From a candidate division WOR-3 bacterium (GTDB lineage Bacteria > Hydrothermota > Tepidihabitantia > Tepidihabitantales > Tepidihabitantaceae): a stretch of DNA of 51,126 nt. Numbering within the stretch: the first letter of the stretch is position 1; every line of letters begins with the position of its first letter. Of the stretch, positions 24,001-36,000 are shown one piece after another. A program made the position numbers. The stretch lies in NCBI GenBank assembly GCA_039801225.1, contig JBDRUH010000006.1, forward strand, positions 1 through 51,126, written 5' to 3'.

Positions 24001-27000
24001 AGCCCATCTTGCTAAAGTCCTTGCCCGACTGGAACATGCCGGTCTGGTGAAAGGTCAAACCGGTCCTGCCGGCGGCTATTGTCTGGCACGAGCCCCGGGA
24101 AAAATTACCCTTTTATCAATCTATCAGGCAATGGAGGGCAAATTACAGACCGGGCGCTGTCCATTTGCAGTGCCGGTATGTCAAGGCGATGGTTGCCCGT
24201 TGGGTAAGTTTTTTCAGAAGATAGACCATCAGGTTATCAGTTGTTTAAAAAAGACAACTATTGCCCAAATAAAAATTAAAATAGGGGGAGGAAATGAAAA
24301 AAGGCAGAAGAAAAGTAATCAGAATTGACGAGTCAAAGTGCACCGGTTGTGGTTTATGTATTCCCGACTGTCCTGAAGGCGCTTTGCAGATAATAGACGG
24401 TAAGGCGCGGTTGATTTCTGACTTATTTTGTGACGGTCTGGGCGCCTGTGTTGGCACCTGCCCGGAAGGTGCTTTAACAGTTGAGGAGCGGGAGGCTGAA
24501 CCTTATGGTGAGCGCAAGGTGATGGAGAATATTATCCGGGCAGGTGCAAATACTATCGCCGCCCATCTAAAGCATTTAAAGGAGCACGGTGCTGAATCCT
24601 ATTACCAGGAGGCGGTCAATTACCTAAAAGAACACGGAATACCCATACCCTATGAAATAGTGAACCCCACCTGCGGCTGTCCTGATGCTCAGGTGCAGTT
24701 CCGGCAGTCAGAGTCGGTAACCGCCGGTGAGGTCAAGTTTAGTTCCCGTCCATCCCGGCTGGTTACCTGGCCGATTCAACTGAAACTGGTGCCGGTGGGT
24801 GCGCCGTTTTTTGCCGGTGCCGAACTTCTTATCGCAGCAGACTGCACCGGTTTTGCCAGCCCGAATTTCCATGATGAGTTCCTTAAAGGCAAAGTGCTCT
24901 TGGTGGCCTGTCCGAAACTGGATGACGCCGAGTTTTATCAGGAGAAGTTGACCGAAATCCTCCGGTTAAATGATATTCTCTCAATAACCTGTCTGCATAT
25001 GGAGGTGCCCTGCTGCTATGGTCTGGTGGCGATTATCCGGCAAGCGCTTGCGGACAGTGGCAAGGAGATTCCCTTTCAGGAAATAACACTTAAAATCAGC
25101 GGTGAGATAAAGGGGGTAAGGGAATGAATGCCGAGGCAAAGATGTTTTGTTATCAGTGTGAGCAGACAAAGGGTGGAAACGGCTGCACCACCCAGGGGGT
25201 TTGCGGTAAGGATGCCCTCACGGCTAATCTGCAGGACCTTTTGCTTTATGCGGTTAAAGGTATCGCCCAGTTTGCTCATCGGGCACGGCAGTTAGGGGTA
25301 ACCGACAGCGAGGTCAACCTCTTTACTGTTGAAGCGCTGTTTTCCACAATTACCAATGTCAATTTTGACCCCGAAAGGCTAAAAGGTTTGCTCTTTCGCG
25401 CCGCGGAGCTGAAAATGCGGATAAAAAGTCTTTACGAAACAGCGGTGAGGGAAAAAGGGTGTGTGCCGGAAAGGCTGGTCGGTCCGGCAGAATGGCAACC
25501 GAAGGAGAGTATTTTTGAGATGGTGGAAGAGAGTAGAAATGTTGGTATTCTTTCCCGCCACGAACGCTTTGGTGACGACCAGGCGGACCTGATGGACTTA
25601 ATTCTTTTCGGGCTCAAGGGGGCTGCTGCCTATGCTGACCATGCGGCAATTCTAAAAGTGGAGAATGAAGAGGTTTACGCCCGTTTCCACGAGCACCTTG
25701 ATTATCTTACCAGGGACAGTTTTGCTACCGAGGAACTATTACAAAATGCATTGAGGGTAGGAGAGTTGAACTTGAAAGCGATGGAACTGCTAGACCGGGC
25801 GAATACCACGACCTACGGCGAACCTGTGCCTACCCGGGTGCGGGTTACGCCGGTACGGGGCAAGGCGATTTGCGTCTCCGGTCATGACCTGTGCGATTTG
25901 GCGGCACTATTGGAACAAACAAAGGACCGGGGGATCAATATCTATACTCACGGTGAGATGTTACCGGCACATGGCTATCCAAAACTTAGAGCATATCAAC
26001 ATCTGGTCGGGAACTTCGGTTCTGCATGGCAGAACCAACAGAAGGAGTTCCCGCTCTTTCCCGGGGCAATTCTTTTCACCACCAACTGCCTCCAGCGGCC
26101 GGTGGCAAGTTATAAAGAACGCATCTTCACTACCGGACTGGTTGCGTGGCCCGGGGTCCAGCATGTCAACCGTAAGGACTTTTCACCGGTGATTGAGGCG
26201 GCACTTGCCCAGCCCGGTTTTGTTACTGATGGTCCACCGCATTACATCACCGTTGGGTTCGCCCGGAACTTTCTTCTGAACAATGTCGCAAGAATTGCCG
26301 AGTTGCTTCAATCCCAGCGAATCCGGCATATATTTCTCGTCGGTGGCTGTGACGGTGCCAAACCGGGGAGAAATTACTATACCCAGTTTGCTCAGTTGGT
26401 ACCGCAGGATTGCCTGATTCTGACATTGGCCTGTGGAAAATACCGGTTTAATAAATTGGAGTTTGGCGAGATTGAAGAGTTCCCGCGTCTCTGGGATGTG
26501 GGTCAGTGCAATGACAGTTATTCGGCGATTCAGTTTGTCGTTGCCTTAAGTAAAGCGCTCGGTGTCAACCCAAACGAACTGCCACTTTCATTTATTCTCT
26601 CCTGGTACGAGCAGAAGGCGGTGGCGGTTCTGCTCACCCTGTTTTATCTTGGGATCAAAGACATCAGGTTGGGACCTTCATTACCAGCATTTTTAACACC
26701 GACTCTTATCAGGATACTTCAAGAAAAGTTTAACATTACGCCCATTACCACTCCGGAAGATGAGTTAAAATCAATTCTTGAATAGTGGTAACTCATGAAT
26801 TATCCCTACAGCCTTGATTCGAGTTACGGGAAAGGAGAGATGGACACCAGATCATTGACATTGCAGAGAAAATTGACATAGCTGATAATAAATAATAAAA
26901 TAGAACATTATGATAATAAATGTAACACTGGGTTTAGTGCTCATTTCCCAGTTGAGTTCATTTGACATTTCGCCGGTTAGTTCTCCCCAATACGCTGGCG

Positions 27001-33000: not shown

Positions 33001-36000
33001 TGGCATCCCGGTCCTCTTTTTTTATAATTACTTTTCCAAAAAGGCGGCAGACCTGACGATGACTTTGGAGAGCACCGCGGAAAGGCTGATTGTTACATTG
33101 GAGCGGTTTAAAGCCCAAACCGGAGAGCGCCAAGCGCCTATCGCCGAGAGCCAGAGAGAGGCAGAGGATACCACCTGGAAGTTCTGATGCGCCGCAGAGT
33201 CCACGAACCCCGCTCTAACCCCGGGTTAATTCTGAACTCACTGGTAGATATTGCCCTGTCATTGGTGATTGCCTTTATTGTCTCAATGCCTTTGTTTTTT
33301 GAGACGGGCATTTTTGTCTCGGCACCCGGGGCTACCCGGGCAAGAGAAAATGAGCCGGTTTCAGATATCAAGGTGAACATTTTTCTCACCAACGATGGGA
33401 AAATCCTCTTGAATGAAGCCCAGGTTTCCTATGACAACTTATCAGAACTACTCCCCCGACTTCTCCAGCGCAGTGTTGAGCGCCGGGTGATAGTGTCAAC
33501 CGAAGACCTGGTAAAATATGACCGGGTGATGAAGGTGCTTGATTTAGCCAAACAGAGCGGGGCGGCGGATCTGGCTTTGCTCCGGACCAGAAAGGCACAA
33601 TGATTAAAGAGGCACCCAATATCAATATATTGCCGATGGCGTGTGTCGGTTTGATTGTGGTTCTGATTATGATGATGATTGCGCCCTTGGTATTGACCCA
33701 TAACGCCACCCCAGTTGATGTTCCCCAGACTCATACCGCAGAACGGAAAACCGAGGAGGATGTGACAATTACCTACACCGCTCAGGGCAATCTCTACTTT
33801 AACGACCAGCCGGTTGAAGGGCTTGATGAACTAAGAGAACGGCTCATTAAAGAGATTACCCGAGACCCGTATGTATTGGTGGTTGTCCGGGCGGACAAGG
33901 AATGCCTCCACTCAGCGGTTCTGGATATTCTTGCCTGTGCCCGGCAAGCGGGTGCCCGGCGTATCGCCTGCGCAACCAAGAGAATAAACCCGGGTGGTTA
34001 AAATCTATGTATACTGAGCGACGCTTCCGAACATTTGAAATCACCCTTTTAATTTCTGCTTTGCTTCATCTTGGCGGTCTTTTGCTTCTTTCCCGTTCCC
34101 GTCCTGTTACCGATTTGGGTCTTGATATTCAAGAGATAAGTTTTATGGATGTTACCTACCGCCCCGAGGTGGCAAAGGTGCTTACCCAGACCCCGACGCC
34201 GAGTTTGGGAGGGGGTGGTTCAACAGTTTCTGAAGGTGCTCATCCGACATATGCGACCGGAATCGCGGCGGAAGATGTTGCTCCCCTGGATATGAATGCG
34301 AAATTGGAGCGTTCGGCTTCTCAAGCAAAGATTGAACTTGACCGTTACGAACTTGCCCGCGAGGGCGAAATGGACCTGATTAAGATTGGCGGAAAGGGCT
34401 CTGCCAAAACAACCGAGGAAATATTAGCCGAGAAGCCCATTCCATTGGCAAGAGGTCCAGTGGGAGGCGGCGCTGGAGATTTACGCGGCGTGCCTGGTGT
34501 GCCCCAAACTCAGTTGCAACCGGAACTTACCATAGAACACCGACCACTGACAAAACCTCAAACCGCGCCAACGCTACCCCAGGCTTCTCCTCAGGCTCAA
34601 CCAACCATCCAGACGCCAGCAACTAAAGGAACCAGTTTTCAGGTTGCCGGACCGATTTCCCAACGGGAGATTATCACTAAAGTAAAGCCGCGCTATCCTA
34701 AATGGGCACTGGAACAACGCGTCAGCGGCACAGTAACAGTCCGTATCTGGGTAATGCCCAACGGTAAGGTAAAAGGCACCCCGCAGGTTCTCTCAAGTTC
34801 CGGTTATCCTGACCTGGACCAGGTGGTAATAGAAGCGGTGCGTTCCTGGGAGTTTGCCCCACTGGGAGCAGGTGTAAAGCAAGAGGACCAGTGGGGAGAT
34901 ATAACATTTATATTCCAACTTTCCTTATGAGTTTATTAATCATTCTTTATATTTTCAGTCAATCGCCGGATAGTATTCCCAAAACCAAACCACCAAACCA
35001 GCACACGATTGGCGAGGAACTGATTACCGGCGAGGCGGAGATGAAAATCACCGACCAGAAAATTTTCATCGCGCCGGAGATAAATCCAATAGCACCGATA
35101 AAAGAGATGCTCTCGGTCAGCAGTTATATCCTTGACCCGGGTTTTTTCCATTCCATTGACTCCTTGAGTGTTCCACAACAGTTTACTCACTCATCGTTTT
35201 TACGAATCCCGGTGGAAAGAAGTTTTGTCTATGGAGACATCCTAATTTTCCTTCCCTCCTTTGAGAGCCGGGTGGCAAATTGGGAACTGGTGATTGCCAA
35301 TTCCCTGGGCGAGACGGTCCGCAGACTGGGGCAAAAAGGGCATCCCCCGGCGTTAATCACCTGGGACGGCAAAAATGACAAAGGCGAGCCGATTCCTACC
35401 GGTGATATTTACAGTTTCACCTTTAACGCCTACGATGCCCAAGGCAATATGACCCGTATCTCCTGTGAGCCGCAACTGATCAACGCCATTATCTGGCAGC
35501 AGGGTGATGGATGGGTTGCTTCAATTGCTGCCGACCATATATATTCTACTGGCGAGGCACAACTCAATGAACAGGCTTTAGGGCGTCTGGATGAGATTGC
35601 CAATGTTATCAAGGAAAGATTTAAAAAAGAGGTTATTGTCTATGTTTATTCTGAAGAGGAGGCGCTCTCGTTAGAACGATGCCGGGTTATTGAAAATGAA
35701 CTCAGACAAAGGTTAATCCTGCCCAAGGATGCGTTAAGGGTGGTGCCAAAGTTCATCCCTGGTCTTAAGCCCAAACACTCAAAGATAGAAATCCATATTA
35801 ACTGAGTCGGTGCTCTTTTCCTGGTTTTAGTCAAACCGGGCGATAAAAAATAACTCTAAAGGGCAGACCTTTACCCTTCCCCCCTATCATTGACAGCCCC
35901 TCGCTTTCCCTCATTCCGTCCCTCGCGCTCCGTAATCCGAGACTTATTGGCTCCGTCATTCCGACCGCGCCAACGGCGAGGGAAGGGATTCCTCGGCAAG

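Follow-up and report, generated by a model that had tools for sequence, protein, structure and literature searches.

The locus at 26910-35805 raises the question of what drives a type IX secretion system (T9SS) that shows no recognisable motor. It lies in a window of 51,126 nucleotides, the whole stretch of DNA that was analysed, on contig C6 of a candidate division WOR-3 bacterium. The T9SS of Bacteroidota depends on the PorKLMN energy chain (passages of PMC12635249), and the first-pass annotation had proposed that the operon at this locus energises the translocon SprA instead. A T9SS without detectable GldK/M/N and a conserved third ExbBD-TonB set were both found again, but the case for the operon as the energiser of SprA is weak. 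All features of the window given below are on the forward strand.

The export machinery was first examined by profile searches. SprA/Sov on contig C4 (18635-24250) scored 474.5 bits against a cut-off of 200 and matched the PDB chain of the F. johnsoniae SprA with an E-value of 1.9e-40, which confirmed its annotation; its length of 1871 residues is about 500 below the 2403 residues of F. johnsoniae. Two PorU-like proteins reached 419.8 bits, as reported before, and 407.9 bits, the latter newly added and both just under the cut-off of 420. The first is a C25 sortase with a C-terminal sorting domain (CTD) at 4253-8173, adjoined by a PorV/PorQ-family barrel at 8223-9695 (125.8 bits against 90). 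The PorV_fam cut-off of 90 was passed by six proteins, not seven as had been counted, with one more at 89.0, and the PorV equivalog cut-off was reached by none of the scanned proteins. A CTD profile matched 89 of 1166 tails (12% of the called residues) and no reversed tail; the earlier figure was about 85 proteins. The PorX candidate is a 516-residue ORF with a PglZ domain. SprA, a PorU-like sortase, PorV-family carriers and many CTD proteins are shared with the Bacteroidota T9SS, whereas PorW and PorZ were not found at the family level among the 55 proteins scanned of about 1400 ORFs. The best PorW scores were 84.1 and 78.7 against 250, and PorZ reached only tail-level scores of 20-35 bits, at most 35 against 260.

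SprA_N occurs nearly throughout WOR-3, as claimed (116 of 121 genomes, 113 over the cut-off). The absence of GldM/PorM and GldN/PorN also held, with 0 of 121 genomes each in profile searches in which no control genome gave a match and which very divergent forms could escape. The GldM model did respond to a C-domain in one further genome, which was rejected as the mark of a motor operon because it belongs to a lone lipoprotein. For GldK the absence stands for this genome, 89% complete, where the FGE-sulfatase fold gave no match at E<=1 and four controls did. WOR-3 appears to have SprA/PorV/PorU export and sorting without recognisable GldKLMN.

The operon consists of eight co-directional ORFs that touch or overlap, with the domains first assigned to them (FlgD-like tail, PorV_fam, TPR, ExbB, two ExbD, TonB_C and FlgD-like). 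A putative sigma-70-like promoter, TTGACA-17-TAAAAT (26873-26901; 11 of 12 consensus matches), is fittingly placed 8 bases before the first start codon; the scan alone says little, since it returned 14 promoter-like sites against 11.5 expected. The first gene (26910-28559) encodes a surface rod, probably an adhesin or spacer, with a signal peptide, repeat units of about 217 residues, a Big_1/invasin-like Ig domain and a CTD. It is always directly upstream of the barrel gene and varies tenfold in length through its repeat number, from 182-757 residues in WOR-3 (only 182-215 in families f15 and f28) to 1489-2265 in Elusimicrobiota and Calditrichota. When the rods were checked for a type B-like CTD, CHU_C was over the cut-off in one of six and weak in another.

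The second gene (28553-29860) encodes a carrier barrel of the PorV/FadL fold with a C-terminal Ig domain of the CTD/FlgD fold. It scored 73.6 bits with PorV_fam, under the cut-off of 90, and was closest to PorV in sequence (E 9.6e-14). Its model (pLDDT 83.9) matched PorV 6h3i_F with a Z-score of 31.2 (rmsd 3.5, 278 residues aligned), tied with FadL 3dwo at 30.5; the C-terminal domain matched the PorU Ig domain (Z 11.1) and, from the topology of the barrel, should be periplasmic. The barrel has no plug domain, no TonB box and no PorP/SprF match, matching PorV/PorQ models instead. A SprF-like cysteine tail was rejected, as the protein has no Cys, and so was a BamG/BAM accessory role, BamG lying below PorV with Z 25-26. 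The third gene (29853-32498) encodes a long soluble periplasmic TPR protein with a signal peptide, no visible lipobox and repeats that fit CpoB/YbgF models best. With 78.7 bits against the PorW cut-off of 250 and without a lipobox it was rejected as PorW/SprE, and PorE gave 31.5 against 600.

An ExbB/TolQ-family stator subunit (32495-33187) is followed by two ExbD copies, of which in this genome the first (33187-33603) has the transmembrane Asp and the second (33600-34001) does not. One of the two copies carries this residue in most alignment rows, and together they may form a heterodimeric axle. The TonB-family transducer (34007-34930, with 34007 the likely start of a frame open from 33902) has a membrane helix with a His conserved in 16 of 17 rows, a long linker with the operon-specific motif STxEIL, and a TonB_C domain. 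Judged by sequence, ExbB, an ExbD with the membrane Asp and a transducer with the membrane His and TonB_C make this a Ton/Tol-type 5:2 motor. In the tree the ExbBs of this operon from three phyla, the present one among them, fell together (branch support 83/94, not starred), and housekeeping ExbB and TolQ lay elsewhere. The operon was rejected as the housekeeping Ton or Tol-Pal system because both are encoded separately and its ExbB groups apart, and the set is a specialised third one, as had been claimed. The true Tol-Pal locus is on contig C32, and an ordinary TonB-dependent receptor in the window (15761-17884) probably relies on the housekeeping Ton set of C11.

The last gene (34927-35805, the likely start being 34927 in a frame open from 34891) had been annotated as a FlgD-domain protein. 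The FlgD-like Ig domain is there, but it is only one part of what we call the adaptor, which in order has a signal peptide, a TonB-box-like strand, a disordered linker, the Ig domain and a degenerate OmpA_C (Pal/MotB-like) domain. Models matched OmpA_C folds with Z-scores of 12.7-11 (rmsd 2.3-4.1, 96-121 residues aligned), and the Ig domain, homologous to that of the barrel, matched PorU (Z 9.4) and FlgD (Z 9.5). Little of the usual peptidoglycan motif is left in the OmpA_C domain, where the Arg is kept in only 11 of 19 rows; lipobox and beta-propeller are absent from the protein. Just after the signal peptide stands IGEELITGE (35008-35034), comparable to the box LGEVKVTAE of a TonB-dependent receptor of the same genome, and adaptors of three phyla have SLDEVVVKA, LPDVSIQGE, LGDIEITGE and IGEEVIKGE at this place. 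A box pattern, composed after the sequences had been seen, matched 25 of 33 sequences (2 of the 25 out of register) against 20% in shuffles; of the five TonB-dependent receptors of the genome it matched only two, and it also matched one site in SprA. The predicted complex of the TonB C-domain with the N-terminal 95 residues of the adaptor scored 0.24 and 0.30 against a mark of 0.32 and was counted neither for nor against binding. A target for its TonB appears to be encoded within the operon itself, and a soluble box-bearing peptidoglycan adaptor would be an apparently undescribed type of such a target.

The distribution of the operon was then compared with that of SprA. Its conservation across families was upheld, and with 74 of 121 WOR-3 genomes it is commoner than the 19 of 41 first given; the whole eight-gene order is kept in WOR-3, Calditrichota and Elusimicrobiota. 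SprA or a SprA-like gene accompanied it in 72 of 74 WOR-3 carriers and in all 11 Elusimicrobiota and all 4 Calditrichota carriers. Of the 121 WOR-3 genomes, 44 had SprA but no operon, and some families lacked the operon altogether (f12, 0 of 7; f13, 0 of 14). Four near-complete genomes (G006, G020, G007 and G083, the first 100% complete in 3 contigs) had 36-50 CTD matches, a single ExbB of the housekeeping type and no operon. In family f17 the operon is split, and its motor half lies 12-17 kb from sprA with at least 11 unrelated genes between, so that a sprA-operon linkage was rejected; no conserved sprA neighbour was seen in 8 regions from 8 genomes. In 7 of 11 Elusimicrobiota the regions fetched show the six-gene core, from TPR protein to adaptor, with neither rod nor barrel beside it. 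Because of this and the split in f17 the rod is possibly dispensable.

The reading we prefer, with a probability of roughly 0.55, is that the operon is an optional client of the SprA system with its own Ton/Tol-type motor, in which ExbB-ExbD-ExbD'-TonB pulls on a rod that sits on a PorV-fold carrier and is anchored to peptidoglycan. What has been established directly is the domain content, the folds, the gene order and the distribution; the coupling is deduced from gene order, motifs and folds. The rod would leave through SprA by its CTD and stay bound to its own barrel like type B cargo. The periplasmic Ig domain of the barrel would dock on the homologous Ig domain of the adaptor, whose OmpA_C domain would hold peptidoglycan; barrel and adaptor together would correspond to a spirochaetal barrel-Ig(n)-OmpA protein divided in two. 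The motor of ExbB, ExbD and ExbD' would drive TonB to grip the N-terminal box of the adaptor and pull, which may release, move or tension the anchor, while the TPR protein would serve as scaffold. The likely result is that a surface adhesin would be actively positioned or retracted. This client role is supported by the box-like strand in three phyla, the Ig and OmpA_C folds, the homology of the two Ig domains, the fused relatives, the persistence of SprA without the operon and the constant place of the rod gene upstream of the barrel gene. It is weakened by the degenerate peptidoglycan motif, the short rods of f15 and f28, the frequent cores without rod or barrel, the split operon of f17, and a box pattern that misses three of the five receptors and matches a site in SprA.

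An unmotorised precedent is the PG1035-PorP-PorE complex, to which the operon may be likened as a motorised version. In this complex and in SprB-SprF, too, a CTD protein stands beside a 14-strand-type carrier of its own, and periplasmic TPR and OmpA_C parts are shared with the former (all from passages of PMC9143113). As in the type B anchor the cargo gene is directly upstream of the carrier gene, but the operon has a PorV-like carrier that ends in an Ig domain, includes in addition a TonB motor and an adaptor with a box, and keeps the TPR and OmpA_C parts in separate soluble proteins, whereas PorE is one lipoprotein with TPR, propeller, CRD and OmpA_C. Agl-Glt (AglRQS, GltG, GltC/D/E) likewise has an ExbB-like and two ExbD-like proteins, a TonB-like transducer and TPR proteins, in myxobacteria also barrels and an adhesin (PMC3169522); T9SS parts and the OmpA_C adaptor set the operon apart. 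Among its eight proteins no NCBIfam match to an Agl or Glt family, GltG and GltC/D/E included, was found at the family level, and the AgmX/PglI tail gave 20.6 against 40. The Lsa66-like barrel-Ig(n)-OmpA proteins of spirochaetes and Elusimicrobiota share the three domain types, but are fused and have many repeats. A barrel was present in 7 of 151, one of which (L235) immediately follows a CTD protein. Around 30 spirochaete matches, to a distance of 1.5 kb, and in 18 longer loci labelled as spirochaete, neither a motor gene nor a protein with a TonB box was found.

A private or accessory energiser is an unlikely alternative, in which the TonB motor would pull the carrier through the adaptor and eject the rod-carrier complex, perhaps others, from SprA; only cargo that is very large or held tightly would need it. 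In Bacteroidota the energy-requiring step is the ejection of carrier-substrate complexes, with carriers dragged by their periplasmic tails (passages of PMC12635249). The periplasmic C-terminal domain predicted for the barrel, the rods of up to 2265 residues and the presence of SprA in nearly all operon genomes agree with this, but a peptidoglycan-binding fold suits anchoring more than lateral dragging, rods are short in several WOR-3 families, and the core often has no rod and barrel nearby.

Improbable, too, is a Tol-Pal-like envelope system built on the six-gene core alone, with rod and barrel as passengers. The adaptor would be a fusion of a TolB box with a Pal-like domain, and its tethering of the outer membrane to peptidoglycan would be controlled by the proton-motive force. 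Tol-Pal shares the 5:2 motor, the transducer, a CpoB-like TPR protein, a Pal-like domain and a soluble target in the periplasm whose N-terminus provides a strand; TolB binds TolA through such a strand. The cores without rod or barrel fit as well, and a role as tether has been proposed for both TolB-Pal fusions and PorE (passages of PMC12204202). However, the genome has its own Pal-CpoB-TolQ-TolR-TolA locus, the operon adds a second ExbD, the barrel and the rod, TolB propeller and lipoprotein Pal are missing, and the entire eight-gene order is kept in three phyla.

The energiser first proposed, a general replacement of PorKLMN with the TPR protein as PorW equivalent, is very unlikely. It would explain the missing GldM and GldN, the specialised ExbB set, the near confinement of the operon to SprA-bearing genomes and the place of the f17 motor half. 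It is disfavoured since SprA occurs without the operon in 44 genomes and whole families and since the operon encodes its own likely TonB target; the low PorW score and missing lipobox of the TPR protein, the unrelated genes between sprA and the f17 motor half, and the lack of a conserved sprA neighbour also speak against it. As a universal role it is largely refuted by G006, G020, G007 and G083. By distribution housekeeping TonB (120 of 121 WOR-3 genomes) fits SprA better, and no ExbB/TolQ-type motor is common to all SprA-bearing genomes examined. Ten small Elusimicrobiota had a SprA-like gene and only a TolQ-type motor; a diverged operon was rejected there, as the ExbB adjoins TolR and TolA-like genes (11 visible single-ExbB regions). 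Import through the FadL-like barrel, which TonB would open via the adaptor while the rod served as a binding lid at the surface, is highly improbable: the FadL tie and the usual service of TonB systems in import are outweighed by a barrel without plug or box that is closest to PorV, by a box placed on a soluble protein where Ton import has a 22-strand receptor with plug, by the ordinary receptors and housekeeping Ton set, and by the absence of conserved catabolic genes beside the operon in the regions compared in three phyla.

SprA has been called FCB-specific (PMC12611786), T9SS genes are described as absent from other phyla in passages of PMC11285876, and passages of PMC12635249 propose that the T9SS first evolved as part of a gliding machinery. 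The operon, or SprA in WOR-3, Elusimicrobiota or spirochaetes, was not described in the literature searched, most subscription papers being outside its scope, nor was the operon mentioned in passages of PMC12505986. SprA-like genes, all below the cut-off, were present in 78 of 81 Elusimicrobiota, 67 of these 78 without the operon, and in 38 of 151 Spirochaetota; no full-length adaptor was among the spirochaete matches listed. The Elusimicrobiota genes scored 119-150 bits with TIGR04189, under 200, and 179-322 bits with a WOR-3 SprA profile, collinear and with a C-terminal Phe; a three-sequence profile of them found no PDB chain. Dozens of CTD proteins with SprA but without detectable GldKMN, and SprA-like genes beyond FCB, suggest that the translocon came first and the Gld motor later. 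A wider reading, less likely than not, is that SprA, PorV-type carriers and CTD cargo are an ancient export system older than the Gld motor and without a dedicated motor in the inner membrane, and that the operon is a third, undescribed kind of adhesin-moving machine, a TonB motor acting through a soluble TonB-box/Ig/OmpA adaptor on a T9SS-exported rod. If so, this system spans many diderm phyla (FCB, Elusimicrobiota and part of Spirochaetota), and the operon, made of Ton parts, is functionally equivalent to SprB gliding. SprA without detectable GldKMN makes it testable how carrier-cargo complexes leave SprA without a motor, and the operon offers a candidate force-driven adhesin device in three phyla.

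A first scan of genome contigs gave no match, and strong matches in a protein search with a TonB alignment came from organisms of the WOR-3 group only. The Atlas hinted at versions of the operon in Krumholzibacteriota.

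Eight ORFs on the + strand of contig C6 (26910-35805) abut or overlap, and a near-consensus sigma-70 site lies ahead of them. With Pfam and NCBIfam, they were assigned in order to an Ig protein with a sorting tail (the rod), a PorV-family barrel with a C-terminal Ig domain (the carrier), a TPR protein, ExbB, two ExbD proteins, TonB and a last Ig protein (the adaptor). Two further motor sets are present in the genome, ExbB-ExbD-ExbD-TonB on contig C11 and Pal-CpoB-TolQ-TolR-TolA on contig C32. When an ExbB-family tree of 49 rows was built, the 41 rows of operon type, which come from three phyla, were separated from both other motor types with moderate support (83/94), and the operon therefore encodes a third, specialised motor. 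The membrane histidine was kept in the operon TonB, and the membrane aspartate was kept by only one ExbD in most rows. A second ExbB was observed in the operon of WOR-3 families f22, f19 and f20, fused to ExbD (regions L040, L041 and L046), and as a separate gene in f17 (L157, L158); it may contribute to a heteromeric stator ring. In family f7 (L049, L050), two or three additional TPR genes were placed between the operon TPR gene and ExbB, and in L056, L066 and L147 a protein with nine Ig domains and an intact OmpA_C domain was found at this place. L066 is titled Clostridia; its genes look like those of Elusimicrobiota, with a SprA-like gene in the genome, and the label may be wrong.

The adaptor has, directly after its signal peptide, a short acidic-hydrophobic strand in three phyla (e.g. 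SLDEVVVKA, LPDVSIQGE and IGEELITGE), which is similar to LGEVKVTAE, the box of a TonB-dependent receptor in this genome. A TonB-box-like pattern, composed after the sequences had been inspected, matched 25 of 33 adaptors (2 out of register), compared with 20% for shuffled sequences and, among 947 other ORFs, 156; it recovered just two of five receptors. The predicted structure showed a disordered N-terminus, an Ig domain with the PorU-CTD/FlgD fold and then an OmpA_C fold, whose peptidoglycan motif is degenerate (arginine kept in 11 of 19 rows). The barrel is PorV/FadL-like and its C-terminal Ig domain is homologous to that of the adaptor. Both termini of such barrels are located in the periplasm. 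In spirochaetes, barrel, Ig repeats and OmpA_C occur as single fused proteins, one of them directly downstream of a CTD protein. The rod is composed of repeats of about 217 residues, invasin-like Ig and the CTD, and its length varied from 182 to 2265 residues. An OmpA_C domain fused to a PorV-family barrel is also encoded at C21:20189-22060, and a 655-residue protein with a PorE-like OmpA_C region at its end (124.8 bits) at C17:19829-21796; both may be additional outer-membrane-to-wall tethers.

We propose, with a probability of roughly 0.55 for the whole mechanism, that the operon encodes a rod with its own carrier, an adaptor as anchor and a TonB drive; the parts were observed, and from these we infer all the contacts. 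The rod would be exported via SprA and retained on its own carrier, whose Ig domain would dock onto the adaptor, while the adaptor OmpA_C domain would grip the cell wall. ExbB, ExbD and the second ExbD would power TonB, and its pull on the adaptor box would release, move or tension the anchor. In the respective papers, PorE, PorP and PG1035 form a complex and type B cargo remains on its carrier (PMC9143113), PorE is suggested as a TonB/TolA target (PMC12204202), carrier-substrate complexes are ejected by energy (PMC12635249), the ring and the translocon are connected by PorW (PMC8754138), and the Agl-Glt core is treated (PMC3169522). That the operon serves as a private extractor, pulling on the rod-carrier complex, seems unlikely to us. 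A Tol-Pal-like tether is quite improbable.

The spread of the operon was determined in 121 WOR-3 genomes, each at least 85% complete. The last-gene profile matched 75 of these, or 74 after removal of a partial match (G012). Among 20 barrel-centred regions, the gene order was kept from the barrel through to the last gene in 16, in two of which some ORFs were masked by the overlap filter; two had extra TPR genes and reached the region end, one was split and one was cut. The complete eight-gene order was present in 4 of 41 Calditrichota. With the TonB profile, which is trained on WOR-3 and gives a lower bound, at least 11 of 81 Elusimicrobiota were positive; all 11 had the six-gene core from TPR to adaptor, and 4 of the 11 had rod and barrel upstream. 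SprA_N was detected in 116 of the 121 WOR-3 genomes. Operon and SprA occurred together in 72, the operon alone in 2 (fragmented assemblies), SprA alone in 44 and neither in 3, counts that include kin and hence non-independent genomes. The operon was nearly never seen without SprA, as expected if the rod is a SprA cargo.

The first-pass annotation had reported SprA, PorU, PorV and CTD proteins without detected GldM or GldN, together with the eight-gene operon, and this observation held. SprA scored 474.5 bits and also matched the solved SprA structure, an iterated tail profile recognised 89 of 1166 C-termini (reversed tails 0), and GldM and GldN were each found in 0 of 121 WOR-3 genomes, a zero that means 'not found', as no control genome gave a match for either. 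The GldM model does pick up a lone C-domain in the Calditrichales genome G122, where a lone lipoprotein with GldM C-terminal domains is encoded (L178:8764-9543) with no gldK, gldL or gldN adjoining. Two PorU-like proteins were present, and PorV_fam was above cut-off in six of the proteins scanned. The genome has no FGE-fold protein, and among the proteins scanned neither PorZ nor PorW was recognised at the level of the family. The stretch directly upstream of porU (1-4222) encodes a peptidase-MA/beta-propeller protein, Omp85-like at its end, and then a 417-residue ORF that has no Pfam or NCBIfam match; both are candidates for unrecognised T9SS parts. One run of genes at C27:1171-10369 encodes a TonB-dependent receptor, a CTD protein, a barrel of the PorV family (205 bits) and a CTD protein resembling clostripain, and forms a conserved-looking cargo-carrier cassette. 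At C36:7930-11079, a 1049-residue signal-peptide protein without an NCBIfam family resembles SprA over a short region (positions 602-651 of the profile).

The same annotation had taken the operon for a TonB-type energiser of a motorless T9SS, and this reading is only partly supported; the near-constant company of SprA speaks for a link. A general energiser is very improbable, since 44 of 121 WOR-3 genomes have SprA without the operon and whole families are devoid of it (f12, 0/7; f13, 0/14; f4, 0/4; f10, 0/3). Housekeeping TonB was present in 120 of 121 WOR-3 genomes. Four near-complete genomes, G006 (3 contigs, 100%), G020, G007 and G083, had 36-50 type A CTD matches and a single ExbB-family gene each, which was of the housekeeping type in the tree; TolQ was not matched in them and the Tol-Pal motor is apparently absent. 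A single ExbB-family gene was also found in 46 of 81 Elusimicrobiota. In the 11 such regions listed it adjoined TolR and a TolA-like gene, and 10 of those genomes had a SprA-like gene, so housekeeping TonB is also not universal among SprA carriers. Cargo is apparently small there: the few genomes that were examined gave 2-6 FlgD-type and 2-13 PorV-family matches. Taken together, there is no single Ton/Tol motor that is found alongside SprA in all cases. An optional, motorised T9SS client is a better reading of the operon than a PorKLMN replacement. The simplest options for the emptying of SprA are that carriers are released spontaneously, with transfer by PorU as an aid, or that whichever Ton/Tol motor is present is borrowed. 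An import system is scarcely credible.

In Rhodothermus and Salinibacter, an older survey reportedly found sprA but no gldKLMN; if this holds, the motorless T9SS of the FCB group is partly known already. In the literature, SprA is described as FCB-specific and missing in Chlorobiota (PMC12611786), and T9SS may exist in further FCB phyla and is absent elsewhere (PMC11285876). No description of the operon was found in the literature searched; Extended Data Table 2 and the supplement of PMC12611786 and the supplements of PMC12204202 may hold SprA in motor-less phyla and related loci, respectively. The individual parts are known. Apparently undescribed are the way in which they are combined, a TonB target that is soluble, and how widely SprA occurs without GldKMN. 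These bear on the origin of the T9SS, for which a passage of PMC12635249 proposes the gliding machinery.

Outside the FCB group, SprA-like ORFs, mostly of 1700-2300 residues and all below the TIGR04189 cut-off, were found in 78 of 81 Elusimicrobiota (from G121-G205; L160-L162) and 38 of 151 Spirochaetota (G124, G246-G395). Three of the Elusimicrobiota proteins matched the WOR-3 SprA profile collinearly with 179-322 bits and have phenylalanine as the C-terminal residue; on their own they matched no PDB chain. Among the matches listed for spirochaetes, with at most 15 candidates per genome scored, those of the adaptor profile were all partial and fell in Ig-repeat/OmpA proteins. A gene that by eye encodes a ComEA-like helix-hairpin-helix protein follows sprA in two WOR-3 families (C4:18225-18632 in this genome, and L163), and a ComF-like gene follows the sprA-like gene in three Elusimicrobiota.
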